Source: a virus. From it: 64,000 nt of DNA. The stretch spans positions 13,500 to 77,499 of IMG/VR virus record IMGVR_UViG_3300050343_000230; one strand, given 5' to 3'. Positions 55,242 to 64,000 of this stretch are shown here, in pieces. The notes under the pieces were generated by a model. It searched no databases. It worked only from the letters and a program-made list of their open reading frames with translations, and had not been told where the DNA came from. How positions within the stretch are numbered: position 1 is the stretch's first letter; each line of letters opens with the position of its first letter. A program made the translations under genes and the position numbers.

Positions 55242-55270
55242 TTGATTTTGTGTGGTGTAAGTGAATGGCC

Positions 55271-55306
55271 CCAGGACTTACGCGATGCTCTACTACCGCT
55301 GCCTGG
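55271..55306 (-). repeat. structured intergenic element family I, copy C
   Basis: CCAGG-CA-GCGGU..AUCGC-GUAAGU-CCUGG. Confidence 0.8.
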
Positions 55307-55312: not shown

Positions 55313-55320
55313 TAATGATA

Positions 55321-55370
55321 CGTTCACCTCTTAAGAGGCGCATAACAACAGGCGTGGAACGGCACCTGTT
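55321..55370 (+). ncRNA. glutamine-II (Downstream-peptide) riboswitch
   Basis: CGUUC-A-CCUC(UUAA)GAGG-CGCA..AACAGG-CGUG-GAACG-GCA-CCUGUU: P1, P2 and 3' pseudoknot, upstream of a YRG peptide. Confidence 0.85.
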
Positions 55371-57456: not shown

Positions 57457-57533
57457 TGGTAGGAGTGGCGGGATTCGAACCCGCACTGTAGCGATTTTAA
57501 GTCGCTTGCCTCTGCCAATTGGGCTACACTCCC
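57457..57533 (-). tRNA. trnL: tRNA-Leu(UAA), 77 nt, short variable loop, encoded CCA
   Basis: GGGAGUG/CACUCCU acceptor, AGCGA-CUUAAAA-UCGCU anticodon arm, GCGGG-UUCGAAU-CCCGC T arm, ACCA end. Confidence 0.95.
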
Positions 57534-57536
57534 GTT

Positions 57537-57592
57537 CTAGGGCTTACACTTTCGGTGTCTCCTGGAGGCGGCGTTACCTACCGGATGCCTAG
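57537..57592 (-). repeat. structured intergenic element family I, copy D
   Basis: CUAGG-CA-U...GUGUAAGC-CCUAG, ending 3 nt before the tRNA 5' end. Confidence 0.7.
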
Positions 57593-57598
57593 CTGTTA

Positions 57599-59368: not shown

Positions 59369-59393
59369 TTGATTTGATGTGGTGTAAAGGAAA

Positions 59394-59427
59394 AACCTGG
59401 GACTTATACCGTTTGGATGCCCAGGTT
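59394..59427 (-). repeat. structured intergenic element family I, copy E
   Basis: AACCUGGG-CA-UCCAAACGG-UAUAAGU-CCCAGGUU. Confidence 0.8.
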
Positions 59428-59432
59428 ATTAG

Positions 59433-59717
59433 TTAGTCAATGTCAAGTTCCCATTCAAGATCTAGTGGATCAATGAATTGGATCTTGTCGTGTTCAGTAC
59501 CATGTACCGGTGGTGGAAGTTCGTCTGGCTCTAGGACAAAGCTCGCGCTACAAAGCGCTGGGCCATACTCTGCAGGATGCGCAGCGTCAGCTGGATGGTA
59601 GGTAGCAGGAATTGTCTGCACCATGTCAGCAATGTTGGCAACAGCAATCCAGTGAGACGTTCCATCGGGTTCAACAAGGTCAAGGTAAATGTTGTCAATT
59701 GAGATGATGTTGGTCAT
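59433..59717 (-). CDS. hypothetical protein
   Basis: PAEYGPALC motif, 94 aa. Confidence 0.65.
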   Translation of the reverse strand: MTNIISIDNIYLDLVEPDGTSHWIAVANIADMVQTIPATYHPADAAHPAEYGPALCSASFVLEPDELPPPVHGTEHDKIQFIDPLDLEWELDID

Positions 59718-59911
59718 GAGTTCTCCAATAAGATGATTGCAGCTTGACGTAAGCCGTTGGTCTTACCGCAGCCTATGAGCCATGCATCAGAACCTACTTT
59801 ATGCTTGTAGGTTTCGTCATGTGATGCATCTGCTGCGGCAGAGATGATGAGATACTTCTCCCATACTTTGTCACGGTAGATGCCAGGAAGTTCAGTGATT
59901 GATGAAGTCAT
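59714..59911 (-). CDS. hypothetical protein
   Basis: start reassigned to MTSSITEL. Confidence 0.55.
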   Translation of the reverse strand: MTSSITELPGIYRDKVWEKYLIISAAADASHDETYKHKVGSDAWLIGCGKTNGLRQAAIILLENS

Positions 59912-59936
59912 TTGATTAGATGTGATGGATGGACAT

Positions 59937-59963
59937 GGGTAGTTTAAAGACATACCCAGGTCT
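59937..59963 (-). repeat. 27-nt H-type pseudoknot, family II, copy a
   Basis: AGAC-CU-GGGUA-U-GUCU-UUAAAC-UACCC. Confidence 0.8.
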
Positions 59964-60033
59964 AGTTCATTGGTATCTATAAGTCTTAATAGTTGTGGTC
60001 GTGGCTGTTCCCAGGGGGTGCAGGGGGACTGAC

Positions 60034-60309
60034 TTACTGGTCGTCAGACCACATGGAGTTGTCTTCTTTGTACTCAGGTAGATCTGGTACTTGGAAGGAG
60101 GATATATCTGGTAGGTCATAGCGTTTAGCTAAGCCCGTACCAGGTAGTGATGTGGTTCCTTTTAGGTGGCCAGTCTCAACATTGATGTTGATTGTTTGGC
60201 TGAAGGGACCAATCTTAAAGGTCTTGGTGTAGGACTTGACGCCACGCTCGGTGATATTAAAGCCGAGGATGGACTTGTCAAAGTTGAATGCTGATTTCTT
60301 ACGTGTCAT
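60034..60309 (-). CDS. hypothetical protein (DUF4236-like)
   Basis: FKIGPFSQTINI...TTSLPGTGL. Confidence 0.5.
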   Translation of the reverse strand: MTRKKSAFNFDKSILGFNITERGVKSYTKTFKIGPFSQTININVETGHLKGTTSLPGTGLAKRYDLPDISSFQVPDLPEYKEDNSMWSDDQ

Positions 60310-60464
60310 GTTGAACGCTTCCGCATTGCAGGGTTTAGATCACTGAGTGCAATTAACTGGCAGATAGTTTCTATCCTTTGATAAATTTGCGTGTCAGTTG
60401 ATTGAAGCTCTAGCACCTTGTCTTCAAGATACTCAATTCTTTCTAGTAGTTCTCTCTTTTTCAT
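60306..60464 (-). CDS. hypothetical protein (52 aa)
   Basis: MKKRELLERIEYLEDK...; ATGA-coupled at both ends. Confidence 0.5.
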   Translation of the reverse strand: MKKRELLERIEYLEDKVLELQSTDTQIYQRIETICQLIALSDLNPAMRKRST

Positions 60465-60524
60465 ACCAAGTCTTCAAAAGCTGCTTTCTTACGTGTCATG
60501 TTGAATGATTTTGTAGAGGTGTAA

Positions 60525-60728
60525 CTATGAAAGGATGTCAGGGATGATGTGGTCAGGATCTGACTCATCCATGTTGGACATGATGAATCGTTCACCGTCT
60601 GGTGACATAAAGCCACCGATGAACTTGGCACCTGCCTTGTCAGCAGCTGCTTTCATCTGAGCAACAATCTGCATAGCACGTAGCTTGTCATCAGTAGGTA
60701 GTGAGTCTGGAACTTGGAGGTCATTCAT
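60525..60728 (-). CDS. hypothetical protein
   Basis: 67 aa. Confidence 0.6.
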   Translation of the reverse strand: MNDLQVPDSLPTDDKLRAMQIVAQMKAAADKAGAKFIGGFMSPDGERFIMSNMDESDPDHIIPDILS

Positions 60729-60746
60729 TTGATTGATTAGCGTAGC

Positions 60747-61031
60747 TTATGAGTTTGTGGTTGTTTGCATAAAGGCCTTGAAGCGTTTCGCTACGTCCCT
60801 TTGTGCATCCATTTGGTCATGGGCTCTCTTCTCTGCTTCTGCAGAGGTGATCTCTTCATTCATCATGAAGGCTGTTACTAAGCCTGCAAACTCTTCGTTC
60901 TCTTGTTCGTCGAGCCAGTCGTCTAGTAGCAATGGTGCTGAGTAATCATCACCATAGTTCTGTGGAGATGGATCGAAGTCGTCCAAGTAGGCTTGGTACT
61001 CTTTGAGTTGCTTGTCTGTAAAGGATGCCAT
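60747..61031 (-). CDS. acidic hypothetical protein
   Basis: start MASFTDKQ after the family I element. Confidence 0.6.
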   Translation of the reverse strand: MASFTDKQLKEYQAYLDDFDPSPQNYGDDYSAPLLLDDWLDEQENEEFAGLVTAFMMNEEITSAEAEKRAHDQMDAQRDVAKRFKAFMQTTTNS

Positions 61032-61049
61032 GTGATGTAGTGATAGGAA

Positions 61050-61083
61050 ACCCTGGGACTTATGCATTGTAGCTGCCCAGGGT
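61050..61083 (-). repeat. structured intergenic element family I, copy F
   Basis: ACCCUGGG-CA-GCUACAAUGC-AUAAGU-CCCAGGGU. Confidence 0.8.
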
Positions 61084-61113
61084 ATTAGTTATTTGTACTG
61101 TTACTAGATGTGT

Positions 61114-61485
61114 CTAGCAATAGTAAGGCCGCTCGGTGGGATAGTCCAAGGCATATCCCGAACCGAGTGTTGCGTGAAGGGCGGTAAAGCCTCTGCTGTC
61201 ATCAATAGGTGGTTGTTCGTAGAGACAGAGGTCTTGGGTGAGGTCGAGTAGTCGGTTGATACATTGCTTCTTCGTGAAGATGAAATGGGTTTGGTACGCT
61301 TGCCCGACTTCGTACCACCAGCCGCCTTCTTCCGGTCCACCAAATTGTTGGTTGACGTTGTGGAGTTTGATGCTGGTTGGTTCTGCACCGTCCCAGTCGG
61401 TTGCCCAGTTGTACTGGTCGATCCAGTATCGGGCTGCTCCGGTGCGTGGATAGCGGTTGATGTAGTCCTGGAGGAGTGAGGCCAT
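61114..61485 (-). CDS. conserved phage hypothetical protein
   Basis: FGGPEEGGWWY...YPTERPYYC. Confidence 0.7.
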   Translation of the reverse strand: MASLLQDYINRYPRTGAARYWIDQYNWATDWDGAEPTSIKLHNVNQQFGGPEEGGWWYEVGQAYQTHFIFTKKQCINRLLDLTQDLCLYEQPPIDDSRGFTALHATLGSGYALDYPTERPYYC

Positions 61486-61558
61486 AGGAGGATTGAAAGT
61501 AAAGCAATGATGTGATCGATGACGTGAACCTCGACAGGTTCAACTGTGGGCTTGAGTT

Positions 61559-61735
61559 TCAAAGGAGAGCCTCAGGGTGATTGTCAATGAACTGTTCGTA
61601 GACATGGTCTACTTCTGGTTCGTCCATTTCCTCACGCATTGCGTTCTCTTGTTGATAAGCAATGTCTGCAAGGATGTCAAGGTCGTCGGCCTTGATCTCT
61701 TGCATGAGGCGATGGAGTTCGGACATGGTTGACAT
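61559..61735 (-). CDS. acidic hypothetical protein (58 aa)
   Basis: MSTMSELHRLMQEIKADD...; read manually, follows a family II element. Confidence 0.6.
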   Translation of the reverse strand: MSTMSELHRLMQEIKADDLDILADIAYQQENAMREEMDEPEVDHVYEQFIDNHPEALL

Positions 61736-61764
61736 GATGTTGAATTGAATAATGTGATGGGACA

Positions 61765-61791
61765 GGACAGTTTAAGGACATGTCCAGGTCC
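61765..61791 (-). repeat. 27-nt H-type pseudoknot, family II, copy b
   Basis: GGAC-CU-GGACA-U-GUCC-UUAAAC-UGUCC. Confidence 0.8.
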
Positions 61792-61952
61792 ATAGATTAG
61801 CGTTTGAGTAGTCTGTAAAGCCACCTGGCTATTGCATTTCTTAACCCTGGTGACTTATAAGAGTCAAGGGTGCAAAAGTTATATTTAGAAATGCGGAAGG
61901 TGTGTTGTGCCATGTGTCTTGCAAATAGAATTATGCGTTTGGAAAGTGTTAC

Positions 61953-62207
61953 TTAGAAGCTAATGAAAGGAGCTTGAATAGTGTTGCTTGGTGCTGGTGA
62001 TTGGACATAGCGTTGGCAATAAGCCATGACTTGTCCATCGTTATAGCCTGCATTCTGTAGTTGATTGATACAGATACAGGCCTGAGTACCAAGCTGAGAT
62101 ATACAGTAGTTCATAACAGGACTAGCCTGAGAACTGGAGTAGTACTGAGCCTTGGCTTCCAACCCTGCGGTTGTGGCGACAAGGAGGGGGAGGAGGAACT
62201 TGATCAT
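61953..62207 (-). CDS. signal-peptide-bearing hypothetical protein
   Basis: MIKFLLPLLVATTAGLEAKAQ. Confidence 0.5.
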   Translation of the reverse strand: MIKFLLPLLVATTAGLEAKAQYYSSSQASPVMNYCISQLGTQACICINQLQNAGYNDGQVMAYCQRYVQSPAPSNTIQAPFISF

Positions 62208-62211
62208 TAAC

Positions 62212-62424
62212 TTAGAAGCGGATCTTCTTGTTGATGTAGCTACTGTCATTGTCGTAGCTAGTGGTCTTAGTAGTTGTGTCTTCCTCATACTCTTTAGAGT
62301 CTCGGAATGCTTCACGTACTACTAATGCACAGCCAGTGGCAACGATGAAGGGTGCTGCACCGACCATGGCTGCGATACCAGTAAGACCGGCACCAAGTGC
62401 GATTGCTTGTGACTTGTTGTTCAT
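62212..62424 (-). CDS. small membrane protein
   Basis: hydrophobic N-half. Confidence 0.55.
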   Translation of the reverse strand: MNNKSQAIALGAGLTGIAAMVGAAPFIVATGCALVVREAFRDSKEYEEDTTTKTTSYDNDSSYINKKIRF

Positions 62425-62609
62425 GATAGTTGTAGATCGTCTTGAAAGAATTGGTTTAAAACGTAACGCATCTTTATATCATCGGAGTTAGTAAATTCTT
62501 TGCTCCAATGAGTAACAATGCATTTCGTCTCCTGACATTCAATAGTCAGTCGTGTCTCATTAGGTAACTCAACTGTTAGATCGTTACCTGGTTTGATGTC
62601 AATGAGCAT
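62421..62609 (-). CDS. hypothetical protein
   Basis: 62 aa after family I copy G. Confidence 0.55.
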   Translation of the reverse strand: MLIDIKPGNDLTVELPNETRLTIECQETKCIVTHWSKEFTNSDDIKMRYVLNQFFQDDLQLS

Positions 62610-62621
62610 AGAGGTGTGAGC

Positions 62622-62665
62622 AAGAGGTAGGACTTACACACCTGGCGGGGTGATGCCTATCTCTT
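62622..62665 (-). repeat. structured intergenic element family I, copy G
   Basis: AGAGAUAGG-CA-UCACC..GGUG-UGUAAGU-CCUACCUCU. Confidence 0.8.
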
Positions 62666-63029
62666 AGTTATAGATGGGGGATTCGTAGATGAATCCTTTC
62701 TCGAATGTTTTCCATGCCTTATAGATAGCGGCACGGATCTCTTCTCGGTTGTTATAGATCACCACTGCTCCTTCCCAGGCTAGCTGGGTGAGCAGGATGA
62801 TCAGTGCAATGGCATGTACTAACAGCCATTTGAGTGGTTTGTGTAGGTGCCTGCGATAGAACTTACCAAAGGCATAGCCTGCCTCGTAGGTGTTCTTGAC
62901 GCAGTTACCAAGGAAGTTCAAGCATAACAATAGGGCTGTGATGCTGAACAGTTCACCACCTAATGCATAGATACGCATGGCGGTAGTGATGAAGGTGTCA
63001 AGGTGTGACAGGATGTGAAGGGTAGTCAT
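62664..63029 (-). CDS. membrane protein
   Basis: two hydrophobic segments. Confidence 0.6.
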   Translation of the reverse strand: MTTLHILSHLDTFITTAMRIYALGGELFSITALLLCLNFLGNCVKNTYEAGYAFGKFYRRHLHKPLKWLLVHAIALIILLTQLAWEGAVVIYNNREEIRAAIYKAWKTFEKGFIYESPIYN

Positions 63030-63050
63030 TAGTTTAATGTGTAATGGTTG

Positions 63051-63130
63051 ATGCCCCCTCGTGTAGAGAGTGAGGAGGCAATAACTGACCAGGGCCTTCG
63101 AGGCCCCAGCTCACGCTTGGTGATCAGTTG
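63051..63130 (-). repeat. three-way-junction + hairpin element, family III, copy i
   Basis: AACUGAUC...GGGGCC-UCGAA-GGCCCU-GGUCAGUU-AU-UGCC..GGCA. Confidence 0.75.
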
Positions 63131-63288
63131 TCAGGTGAGATACGCTTGGCAACCTTCCTGCGAACGTTGTCAATTTCGTATGTCACTTGTGCTTTGCTTG
63201 GCACACCTGGTGCCTTAGCTTTGCTGATACCATCTGCTGTGATATGCAGAAGGTTGGATAGATTCTTGCGGATGTTGAGTGCAGTCAT
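63124..63288 (-). CDS. basic hypothetical protein (54 aa)
   Basis: MTALNIRKNL...ISPDN*; read manually. Confidence 0.6.
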   Translation of the reverse strand: MTALNIRKNLSNLLHITADGISKAKAPGVPSKAQVTYEIDNVRRKVAKRISPDN

Positions 63289-63325
63289 TGTTCAGTAGGT
63301 AGTGTGTGTTGTAATAACCTAGACC

Positions 63326-63550
63326 TTAGAAGCCAGGGCCATACTTGTTAGTGGTGGCATAGCCGTAAGTCTTACAGAAGTCCACATGAGCAGCATGCTT
63401 TTCAGCAGGCCAGTCATGGTTAAGACATTGCTTACGGGTAGCAGCTTCTAATACTGTAGGTAATACAACTGCAGCTGAGATGGTACTCAGTGCAAGTAAC
63501 AGTGTACTGATGAATACAAGACGGCCATCGGCAAGGAACTTGTTAAACAT
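63326..63550 (-). CDS. small membrane-anchored protein
   Basis: start MFNKFLADG; QCLNHDWP...HVDFC. Confidence 0.6.
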   Translation of the reverse strand: MFNKFLADGRLVFISTLLLALSTISAAVVLPTVLEAATRKQCLNHDWPAEKHAAHVDFCKTYGYATTNKYGPGF

Positions 63551-63565
63551 GATGTGATGTAATAG

Positions 63566-63635
63566 ATGCCACGGAGGTGTGGCAATAACTGACCCCGGCA
63601 TTGCACCGGGGATGACCGCGTTTACGGATCAGTTG
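63566..63635 (-). repeat. three-way-junction + hairpin element, family III, copy ii
   Basis: AACUGAUC-CGU(AAAC)GCG...CCGG-UGCAAUG-CCGG-GGUCAGUU-AU-UGCC..GGCA. Confidence 0.75.
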
Positions 63636-63925
63636 GTAGTGATGACTAGACGATGGATGAACTTCAGCTGGTACTTATCACCCACCTTGTTGGCATAGAC
63701 ATGCCAGGTGAATGGTACGTAGTCCTCTGCATCTGTTGGTCCATCCATTGTTGTTAGGAAGGACTTGAACATCTGCATGACATCAGTGATTGTCTTGCCA
63801 TAGAACTGGAGCTGACACGTTGTGATCGTGACAGATCTTGTGTTGGTTGTTGCAATCTTGTCGCTGAGTTCATAACACTTGGTCAAGAACTCTTCGCACT
63901 TGATGTCTTCTGATGTGTAATTCAT
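63629..63925 (-). CDS. hypothetical protein
   Basis: 98 aa ending ITTN*. Confidence 0.6.
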   Translation of the reverse strand: MNYTSEDIKCEEFLTKCYELSDKIATTNTRSVTITTCQLQFYGKTITDVMQMFKSFLTTMDGPTDAEDYVPFTWHVYANKVGDKYQLKFIHRLVITTN

Positions 63926-63947
63926 GTGATTGAATGTGATTGAACGC

Positions 63948-63974
63948 GAGAAGTTTAAAGACTTACTCAGGTCT
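63948..63974 (-). repeat. 27-nt H-type pseudoknot, family II, copy c
   Basis: AGAC-CU-GAGUA-A-GUCU-UUAAAC-UUCUC. Confidence 0.75.
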
Positions 63975-64000
63975 TACGAGCTTACAGTAGTTTCTGAAAG

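Follow-up and report, generated by a model that had tools for sequence, protein, structure and literature searches.

A compact H-type pseudoknot of 27 nucleotides on the mRNA strand, strongly supported by covariation in both stems, conserved loops and an A-rich third loop (L3), heads each of three early genes in the window analysed here, a 64,000-nucleotide stretch of a marine S-EIV1-like dsDNA cyanophage, and recurs in hundreds of unrelated phages as well as in some small RNA viruses. Judged by sequence and architecture, it is probably a relative of the coremin (xrRNA-C) fold with a long stem 2, an octaloop and no second hairpin. We favour, with somewhat less than even confidence, the reading that this knot would act as a mechanical roadblock or insulator, working in one direction and protecting the RNA downstream of it.

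Copies 1, 2 and 3 occupy positions 59937..59963, 61765..61791 and 63948..63974 of the minus strand and, written as alternating stem and loop segments (S1–L1–S2–L2–S1–L3–S2), read AGAC-CU-GGGUA-U-GUCU-UUAAAC-UACCC (59963..59937), GGAC-CU-GGACA-U-GUCC-UUAAAC-UGUCC (61791..61765) and AGAC-CU-GAGUA-A-GUCU-UUAAAC-UUCUC (63974..63948), reproducing the originally predicted sequences letter for letter. Stem 1 is thus AGAC/GUCU in copies 1 and 3 and GGAC/GUCC in copy 2, while stem 2 pairs at 5/5 positions in copies 1 (GGGUA/UACCC) and 2 (GGACA/UGUCC) and contains one U-U in copy 3 (GAGUA/UUCUC); L1 is CU and L3 UUAAAC throughout, and the single L2 nucleotide is U, U and A, respectively. The pattern GACCTGNNNANGTCYTTAAACT matches the window three times, on the minus strand only, against a shuffle expectation of 0.10 (0/100 shuffles reached three), and a search of the whole 77.5 kb genome found no copies beyond these. 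Copy 3 lies 27 nt from the contig end, the genome being circular or permuted.

Each copy is followed by a G-poor, unstructured leader that has no Shine-Dalgarno sequence and ends at an ATG, the measured distances of 25, 29 and 22 nt agreeing with the 22–29 nt predicted. The leaders of copies 1 (59912..59936) and 2 (61736..61764) both carry CCAUCACAU, and that of copy 3 (63926..63947) carries CAAUCACAU; they open minus-strand ORFs of 65 aa (59714..59911), 58 aa (61559..61735) and 98 aa (63629..63925), none of which belongs to a family. In the related genomes S-EIV1 and L406 the knot likewise heads 22–29-nt leaders without a Shine-Dalgarno sequence, and in contig L146 the copy-3 knot, its upstream flank and its leader are nearly unchanged, with the block containing the downstream ORF ~80% identical. 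The preceding confident ORF is 70 to ~470 nt from the three copies; a putative coding ORF of 38 aa on the same strand (61797..61913) ends with a UAA 5 nt before copy 2, which is the modal stop-to-knot spacing of other loci.

The pairs that covary within the window, one in stem 1 and three in stem 2, are by themselves too few to decide the fold, but hundreds of independent copies elsewhere bear it out. Scans of IMG/VR in which one part of the motif was left free each time, so that the pattern could not bias that part, showed that stem 1, stem 2 and both loops are each maintained. When stem 2 was the free part, all five of its pairs formed at 76 of the 91 non-redundant loci, with 39 G-U against 5 A-C combinations; with stem 1 free, 94/119 loci pair 4/4 through many pair types; and with the loops free, L1 was CU or CC and L3 was NNAAAC in all 72 loci. 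Compensatory changes are interleaved across both stems, with G-U exceeding A-C (62 versus 12) on the sense strand only. The consensus across phages is NNNC-CU-GRNYA-N-GNNN-NNAAAC-URNYC, in which ten of the 27 positions are invariant and one nearly so across many phyla: the C3-G12 pair is present in 146/146 sequences while the other three stem-1 pairs covary, and AAACU is invariant, preceded by two variable nucleotides and followed mostly by R. The L2 junction nucleotide is U, then A, C and G in order of falling frequency, and the L3 adenines probably line the stem-1 minor groove. These data uphold the original prediction of a compact pseudoknot with two covarying stems and an A-rich L3, and the larger alignments of IMG/VR loci keep that covariation; the loss of it that had been named as a sign of a DNA-level site did not arise. 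The predicted invariance of the loops stands for UUAAAC in the three window copies, whereas across phages only NNAAAC is fixed and L1 may be CU or CC. No family in Rfam 15 matches the 27-nt element.

Across genomes the element is intergenic, sits on the sense strand and is strictly co-directional with the genes, the antisense control being flat, and the genes flanking its copies are unrelated to one another. The distance from stop codon to knot peaks at 5–6 nt (72/274 loci) with a hard lower limit of ~4 nt, and the start codon follows at a peak range of 13–36 nt, with none nearer than 13 nt; the spacing to the ATG is near-fixed in cyanophage-type leaders (mode 23 nt) and spreads widely outside that group. 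ORFs ending upstream are commoner than ORFs starting downstream (76% versus 57%, background 18–19%), and all nine downstream sense tRNAs begin 2–9 nt after the knot, the distance being 2 nt in Arthrobacter phage Amigo. Integrases and homing endonucleases are enriched among the downstream genes, not the upstream ones. In Staphylococcus aureus and Lactobacillus phages the knot lies between a minor-head or protease gene and the scaffold and major-capsid genes, and in the S. aureus phages homology of the upstream gene continues through the knot and breaks just beyond it. The tail that follows the knot is G-poor, with A at +1 and then U-rich sequence, and a U-tract (at least 5 U in 7 nt) starts 0–6 nt after about 22–36% of copies, compared to 2–4% elsewhere, at equal frequency with and without a downstream gene.

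The same 27-mer consensus is found in tombus-like RNA-virus contigs (L043, L053, L080, L084, L100 and L108), where the knot lies 8–23 nt past an RdRp-type ORF and ahead of the coat gene or, in the 3' UTR, 14 nt after the coat stop with hairpins next; these are the classical xrRNA positions. Hairpins follow some of the tombus-like copies, most clearly in L080 (its 3'-UTR copy) and L043 (its first copy).

The closest likeness is to the coremin motif (xrRNA-C) and its Watson-Crick variant xrRNA-WCC, carried by eukaryotic RNA viruses of the beny-, cucumo-, hypo-, chryso-, tombus-like and other groups (PMC6546385, PMC10321173, PMC10520033). Coremin consists of a 5' hairpin of 3–5 bp with a loop of consensus YGAD or YGNNAD (7–8-nt loops, e.g. 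CGAGUAA, have been tested), and in both elements the loop pairs with the nucleotides directly after AAAC to form a pseudoknot; both are located immediately behind an ORF, between genes or in a 3' UTR. Mutational mapping of coremin revealed that the C-G closing pair is required, that U13U14 can be changed to AA and that A16, A17, C18, U19 and A20 are essential (PMC6546385). The knot matches this map: its C3-G12 closing pair is invariant, and within the spacer (G)UUAAACUAC the tolerant UU corresponds to its variable positions 16–17 and the essential A16–A20 to its invariant AAACU. The knot loop, C-U-G-R-N-Y-A-N, has an invariant first C, G and penultimate A, a last nucleotide that is mostly U or A, and a U before the G; it shares with coremin the first Y, the G, the penultimate A and the last D, although it is an octaloop and the published coremin-type loop consensus includes none of that length. 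Loop-extended coremin variants comprise the heptaloop CGAGUAA, which is Xrn1-resistant (PMC10520033), and the octaloop CGCAAAGC, and the copy-3 loop CUGAGUAA is one U apart from that heptaloop. The two also differ: stem 2 of the knot is a full 5-bp Watson-Crick helix, unlike that of coremin, and coremin requires a second hairpin (hp2) directly downstream for Xrn1 resistance, whereas the phage knots are without it. No excess of hairpins was seen behind the knot at 274 loci (62 loci, compared with 85 for control windows), the mean folding energy also being weaker, and the 28 nt 3' of phage knots are less structured than control windows. Moreover, coremin is carried by eukaryotic RNA viruses, while here the knot is carried by a dsDNA phage that infects bacteria, and bacteria lack Xrn1.

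Other known RNAs resemble the knot less closely. The preQ1-I riboswitch (RF00522) is likewise a compact H-type pseudoknot with an A-rich 3' tail ending AAAC-U, but its L2 loop holds the ligand-pairing C where the knot has one variable nucleotide, and the knot has neither Shine-Dalgarno sequestration, its stem 2 3' strand not being a Shine-Dalgarno sequence, nor a terminator; the RF00522 covariance model gave no match at E values up to 10 on positions 59800–64000 or on 18 other knot loci. GP20-b (RF03003) is a candidate cis-regulatory RNA that precedes phage scaffold (Phage_GP20) genes (Weinberg et al. 2017, PMC5737381; PMC10690425), as does the knot in S. aureus and Lactobacillus phages, and the knot of phage KC5a can be weakly aligned with the GP20-b 5' hairpin, at 20.5 bits where the gathering threshold is 36.2 bits. 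GP20-b differs, however, in a second hairpin, in L1 and in the end of L3, and its model found no match on the window or the S. aureus phage loci scanned together, none in five genomes found via the motif pattern (four with a clean knot) and none in 151 Lactobacillales genomes. The luteoviral −1 frameshift pseudoknots (e.g. BWYV, 28 nt) have a 2-nt L1 starting with C, a single junction nucleotide and an A-rich L3 in the stem-1 minor groove, and the knot is alike in size and in these loops; unlike them, it stands after stop codons and before tRNAs. A role as −1 frameshift stimulator is disfavoured, since slippery heptamers 5–9 nt upstream occur only at background frequency and the intergenic knots have no overlapping −1 ORF. 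In position the knot recalls the RNase III processing hairpins that separate the early genes of T7, as well as the tRNA-punctuation model: discrete structured RNAs divide up an early polycistronic transcript, each placed a few nucleotides past one gene and shortly ahead of the next. The fold of the knot is a different one, and we know of no nuclease that recognises it.

How might such an element work? In the roadblock reading each copy would be a self-contained knot within an early polycistronic transcript, in which stem 1 (4 bp, closed by the invariant C-G), L1 (CU), the 5-bp stem 2, one junction nucleotide and L3 (NNAAAC) would, without the help of a protein, halt machines moving 5' to 3' on the RNA at the knot's 5' face. 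The machines stopped may include the host cyanobacterium's RNase J, RNase E in its 5'-end-dependent scanning, and ribosomes that slide or scan, such that the gene or tRNA behind the knot would keep its own lifetime and translation whatever happens upstream. The knot would remain folded as ribosomes terminate upstream and initiate downstream, lying at least 4–5 nt after the stop and at least 13 nt before the start (here 22–29 nt). A Vibrio phage also has a clean copy, and since its host group is not known to possess RNase J, that enzyme cannot be the sole target. There is precedent for such blocks: xrRNA-C halts Xrn1 one nucleotide ahead of its hairpin, bacterial RNase J1 is blocked by a flaviviral xrRNA (PMC5760640), and coremin stops ribosomes (PMC10321173) and has a frameshift-stimulating activity that was exploited for an E. 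coli screen (PMC10520033). Among the three functions originally offered, a 5'-exonuclease block is the best supported, by the coremin map and the tombus-like xrRNA positions, although its RNase J-specific version is not universal. The placement of the knot ahead of the scaffold and major-capsid genes in S. aureus and Lactobacillus phages, the downstream excess of integrases and homing endonucleases, and the Shine-Dalgarno-less leaders of the window, S-EIV1 and L406 speak for the roadblock reading; the missing hp2 of phage copies and the U-tract that follows about 22–36% of copies speak against it.

The couplings to stop codons and tRNAs and the upstream ORF bias would fit a role at the 3' end at least as well. 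The knot may instead cap the upstream message tightly behind its stop codon, blocking 3'-to-5' exonucleases after a cut made just downstream by RNase P at the adjacent tRNA, or by RNase E/Y in the G-poor, U-rich tail; we liken this to the MALAT1 triple helix, which adjoins its tRNA-like RNase P site. The composition of the tail agrees with such a cap, as does the S. aureus phage homology that spans the knot with the upstream gene, and some phages have a TGnTATAAT box 17 nt downstream of the L3 TTTAAA, so that the downstream transcript would lack the knot. We nevertheless consider a cap unlikely: the window copies are far from the preceding confident ORF yet fixed at 22–29 nt from the ATG, a stem 2 of 5 bp that includes A-U pairs offers 3' exonucleases little resistance next to REP or terminator hairpins, the known relatives of the fold resist attack from the 5' side, the tombus-like copies occupy xrRNA positions, and the downstream enrichment of integrases and homing endonucleases would be left unexplained. 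The same spacings could also be those of a translational insulator or regulator just outside the footprints of terminating and initiating ribosomes, which would block post-termination sliding or serve as a landmark or standby site for Shine-Dalgarno-less initiation. The 4–5 nt limit after stop codons equals the ribosomal helicase boundary, and the exclusion within 13 nt of the start, the near-fixed cyanophage leaders and the effects of coremin on scanning ribosomes and frameshifting point the same way; copies that immediately precede tRNAs or lie in a 3' UTR, with no translation start after them, and the broad downstream distances outside the cyanophage group make this distinctly improbable.

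Recognition by a conserved protein or small ligand, as operator or riboswitch, would suit an element with so many invariant positions, which are typical of specific recognition, and with an architecture like preQ1-I, but this is very unlikely. Where preQ1-I has its ligand-pairing C the knot may carry any of the four nucleotides, an expression platform is lacking, neither preQ1 nor any other Rfam model matches, and occurrence in dsDNA phages of many phyla and in tombus-like RNA viruses argues against a host-specific partner. The ligand sensor of the original prediction is disfavoured on these grounds and by the copies before tRNAs, and the unrelated flanking genes speak against a protein operator tied to one gene, as in T4 gene 32. 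Nor do we give much credence to a leaky terminator or attenuator, in which stem 2 closing beside a U-tract would release RNA polymerase; the excess of U-tracts and the location at gene ends favour it, yet 0/3 window copies have a U-tract and a terminator scan finds none there, U-tracts are no rarer where a gene follows, the S. aureus and Lactobacillus phage knots precede genes needing the highest expression, and the motif also occurs in RNA viruses. That last observation likewise opposes a DNA-level site, i.e. a promoter, operator or recombination (mosaic-junction) sequence, a reading that is already largely refuted and that we regard as extremely improbable. L3 could act as a −35 box in some phages, a BPROM promoter annotation covers the element in phage B166, and mosaic breakpoints adjoin it; against these stand the compensatory, sense-strand-only changes in both stems, the strict co-direction with genes against a flat antisense control, and the lack of a −10 signal at a fixed offset.

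Returning to the roadblock reading, the comparison with coremin raises the tentative suggestion, to which we give rather less than an even chance, that dsDNA phages whose bacterial hosts span many phyla use an RNA roadblock that needs no protein and belongs to the coremin/xrRNA-C fold family of eukaryotic RNA viruses. If true, this would be the first class of RNAs in the prokaryotic world to resist exoribonucleases or ribosomes, common to phages and tombus-like RNA viruses through transfer or convergence, and it would provide a modular punctuation by which every cistron or tRNA has a stability of its own.

The three minus-strand copies of the 27-nt H-type RNA pseudoknot (here called the knot) were confirmed exactly as originally read, at window positions 59937-59963, 61765-61791 and 63948-63974. 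The 22-nt core pattern matches the window three times, always on the minus strand, against 0.10 matches expected, and a pattern search of the whole 77.5 kb virus record found no further copies elsewhere. Each copy does lie closely upstream of an ATG, with gaps of 25, 29 and 22 nt for copies 1, 2 and 3, and the ORFs behind them are small (65, 58 and 98 aa, respectively) and match no family. The intervening leaders are poor in G and without a Shine-Dalgarno sequence, and all have AUCACAU in common. The space upstream of copy 2 is taken up by a putative 38-aa basic ORF (61797-61913, minus strand), whose UAA lies exactly 5 nt before the knot, which is the modal spacing in other phages; copy 3 is separated from the contig end by 27 nt.

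Since three copies alone are weak evidence, the motif was searched for in IMG/VR with several patterns, each with one part unconstrained, and the predicted H-type pseudoknot with covarying stems was upheld part by part. With the interior of stem 2 free, and its first G and closing U fixed, 76 of 91 non-redundant loci pair at all five positions and 11 at four of five. With stem 1 free, 94 of 119 loci pair 4/4 through a wide variety of pair types, and the closing C-G pair of that stem is the same throughout. When the loops were freed (72 loci), loop 1 was CU in 66 loci and CC in six, and loop 3 read NNAAAC in every one. G-U pairs outnumber A-C pairs by 62 to 12 on the sense strand, and the motif is strictly co-oriented with genes, the antisense control being flat; this asymmetry and orientation indicate that the structure belongs to the RNA. 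Conservation does not extend into the flanks, which makes the motif a discrete 27-mer with the consensus NNNC-CU-GRNYA-N-GNNN-NNAAAC-URNYC. When 146 distinct copies are aligned, ten columns are invariant and one is nearly so; as these copies were pre-selected for pairing, the pair counts from this alignment are used simply to list the pair types.

The copies are real and belong to a widespread, uncatalogued motif, whose function as proposed below is putative. The motif recurs in hundreds of unrelated phages, whose hosts or sources include cyanobacteria, Firmicutes, Actinobacteria, alpha- and gamma-proteobacteria and candidate phyla radiation (CPR) bacteria, as well as in crAss-like phages, among them cr7_1. 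In Lactobacillus phage KC5a and S. aureus phages B166, 80 and 96, the knot separates the minor-head or protease gene from the scaffold (Phage_GP20) and major-capsid genes, and in roseophage SIO1 it follows the ribonucleotide reductase gene. The layout in S-EIV1 is a stop codon, 5 nt, the knot, a leader of about 23 nt and an ATG. One clean copy was found in a Vibrio phage; an apparent copy in E. coli phage AugustePiccard is degenerate, its stem-2 3' strand misfitting, and was left out of the counts. Nine knots lie inside 6 kb of one phage contig (L326). In a comparison of L410:1350-1700 with S. aureus phages, the mosaic breakpoints between Phietavirus head modules lie about 8 nt after the knot, the homology of the minor-head gene extending through the knot and then ending; in some phages, 220-245 nt containing an additional small ORF are inserted at this point.

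Among 80 bacterial-genome matches examined, about 45-55 look real, including those in Weissella prophage-like elements, CPR bacteria and cyanobacteria. Weissella chromosomes (L126, L127, L129, L132, L134, L147, L150, L167, L172, L174, L178, L179, L181, L187, L191 and L196) contain several knots each, about 32 nt upstream of tyrosine-integrase genes, with a conserved leader, AAAGGUUAGGUUUAAACUAAUG, before the knot and a TATTATACC-like box after it, which suggests a family of integrative elements with a knot in the integrase 5' UTR.

For 274 non-redundant copies, the position of the knot relative to genes was analysed. Where a sense ORF ends upstream, the spacing between its stop codon and the knot shows a sharp peak at 5-6 nt (72 loci) and is almost never below 4 nt. 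The next ATG follows at 13 nt or more, in most cases at 19-36 nt, and the commonest distance in cyanophage-type leaders is 23 nt. Downstream sense tRNAs start 2-9 nt after the knot in nine cases out of nine, the distance in Arthrobacter phage Amigo being 2 nt. A symmetric gene-neighbour test with an antisense control, which replaced a classification by ORFs of at least 90 aa made noisy by spurious antisense ORFs, found that at 76% of loci an ORF ends within 60 nt upstream and that at 57% one starts downstream, compared with 18-19% in the control. Downstream genes are enriched in integrases and homing endonucleases, and upstream genes include Hsp20 and RIIB, among others.

The window belongs to a marine phage related to Synechococcus phage S-EIV1, the two sharing 63% identity in DNA polymerase A. 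A near-identical or close relative was found as a contig (L146, 1-2855) binned in a Methanobacteriota (archaeal) MAG; this contig connects the window's contig end (77499) straight to position 1, indicating that the phage genome is circular or permuted and that the MAG bin is contaminated. RNA runs X1-X3 contain only fragments of the window phage or a relative, as assembled contigs without transcript ends or strand. Other structured RNAs in the window are a glutamine-II riboswitch aptamer (55318-55368, plus strand, antisense to the early arm; Rfam 40.4 bits, gathering score 33) and a tRNA (57460-57533, minus strand; 62.4 bits). Four minus-strand hairpins of a second repeated element, Family I (59369-59432, 62610-62663, 57534-57598 and approximately 55242-55300), share GGCA...RUAAGYCC and an asymmetric internal loop. 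They sit in knot-type slots, with a stop codon 6-9 nt before and the next ATG 20-29 nt after; one lies 7 nt before the tRNA and one is followed by UUUUU. This placement supports the view that structured elements of equivalent function punctuate the early arm. In the sibling phage L406, two knots stand ahead of other genes without Shine-Dalgarno sequences, within an otherwise unrelated early arm; the early arms of the two phages share too little sequence for a search for the same downstream gene under different elements. At least four copies of Family III, an element of about 85 nt (window 63547-63631), occur in the L406 early arm (397-480, 1207-1290, 1485-1575 and 1950-1996).

Neither the three copies nor 18 further loci with a knot match an Rfam family, GP20-b giving only a sub-threshold partial match in one phage (KC5a), and no earlier account of the phage motif turned up in the literature under sequence strings or keywords. 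To our knowledge, exoribonuclease-resistant RNAs (xrRNAs) have so far been known only from eukaryotic RNA viruses. The closest likeness is to coremin, an Xrn1-resistant RNA of such viruses, whose mutational map agrees position by position with the invariant and variable columns of the phage motif. In the BNYVV map, the C-G closing pair is required, the loop has a first Y, a G and a penultimate A, UU to AA is tolerated, and A16, A17, C18, U19 and A20 are essential (PMC6546385). The Xrn1-resistant heptaloop CGAGUAA is one nucleotide off the loop of copy 3 (PMC10520033), and in a Watson-Crick variant of coremin the loop pairs with nucleotides after AAAC, as in the phage motif (PMC10321173). The phage motif differs in having an octaloop with U before G and a full 5-bp stem 2, in lacking the second hairpin and in being carried by prokaryotic DNA viruses.

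The same consensus was also found in six small IMG/VR contigs that are tombus-like RNA viruses, each with a detected RdRP_3 and/or S-domain coat protein. Their knots lie 8-23 nt behind the RdRp-type ORF and ahead of the coat gene, with another 14 nt past the coat stop in L080, and these sites are the classical positions of xrRNAs. Some knots are tandem, and hairpins follow some of them; in two RNA-virus contigs, L043 (3150, 3224, 3252) and L100 (2245, 2275, ~2305), the period is about 30 nt. Separately, about 200 nt at or shortly after the knot in tombus-like contigs match the GIR1 lariat-capping ribozyme model over its full length but below threshold, at 24-40 bits against a gathering score of 100 (L053:768-966; L084:2295-2518 and 2108-2270; L108:1546-1750; L080:2397-2608). 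These regions share the blocks AUGGGGUU...CCAAAACGG...UCCGUGCUAA, and the matches may reflect chance or a group-I-like structured intergenic RNA.

The most economical reading of the knot, held tentatively and at a little under even confidence, is that it acts as a directional mechanical roadblock or insulator. Its coremin-type relatives halt Xrn1 and ribosomes with no protein needed (PMC10321173, PMC10520033), and the knot would act likewise. The motif is common to viruses whose hosts otherwise have nothing in common. Another xrRNA class blocks bacterial RNase J1 (PMC5760640); the clean Vibrio-phage copy argues against RNase J, named in the original prediction, as the only target. The knot heads genes that call for an expression level of their own, among them those for capsid, integrases and homing endonucleases and the small early genes of the window, and its spacings equal the minimum distances at which ribosomes that terminate or initiate would leave it folded. 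The tight coupling to upstream stops and tRNA 5' ends speaks for a 3'-cap role, which we consider unlikely overall, and a translational insulator appears improbable.

A terminator-like element has very little probability. The nine nucleotides 3' of the knot contain 5-10% G, with A at +1 in 61% of loci and then a U-rich stretch, and a U-tract follows at 22-36% of loci, with or without a gene behind it. Hairpins are not enriched 3' of the knot in the 274 copies. That the knot is the site for a specific binding partner seems only slightly less remote. The proposed ligand sensor was not borne out, there being no Rfam match, and the suggested likeness to preQ1-I riboswitches holds for architecture only, because the position of the ligand-pairing nucleotide varies in the motif. 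A DNA-level site is largely excluded; a sigma-70 promoter was rejected as a general reading, with no -10 signal at a fixed offset, as was a frameshift signal, with slippery heptamers 5' of the knot at background frequency.

The motif is a 27-nt, sequence-defined relative of exoribonuclease-resistant RNAs in phages, and it fills an Rfam gap and would improve phage genome annotation. New here are the part-by-part, unbiased fold tests, the G-poor, U-rich tail that has no second hairpin, the negative tests for a frameshift signal, a promoter and a riboswitch, the copy in a Vibrio phage, the downstream enrichment of mobile genes and the occurrence of the consensus at xrRNA-type sites of tombus-like RNA viruses, a link that bears on RNA modules moving or converging between DNA and RNA viruses. 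Direct tests are feasible in culture with S-EIV1, S. aureus Phietaviruses, Lactobacillus KC5a and Arthrobacter Amigo, and the knot would serve as a small module with which to stabilise or insulate synthetic transcripts. If the roadblock works as proposed, a tiny portable RNA knot can compartmentalise bacterial mRNA decay and operon expression.
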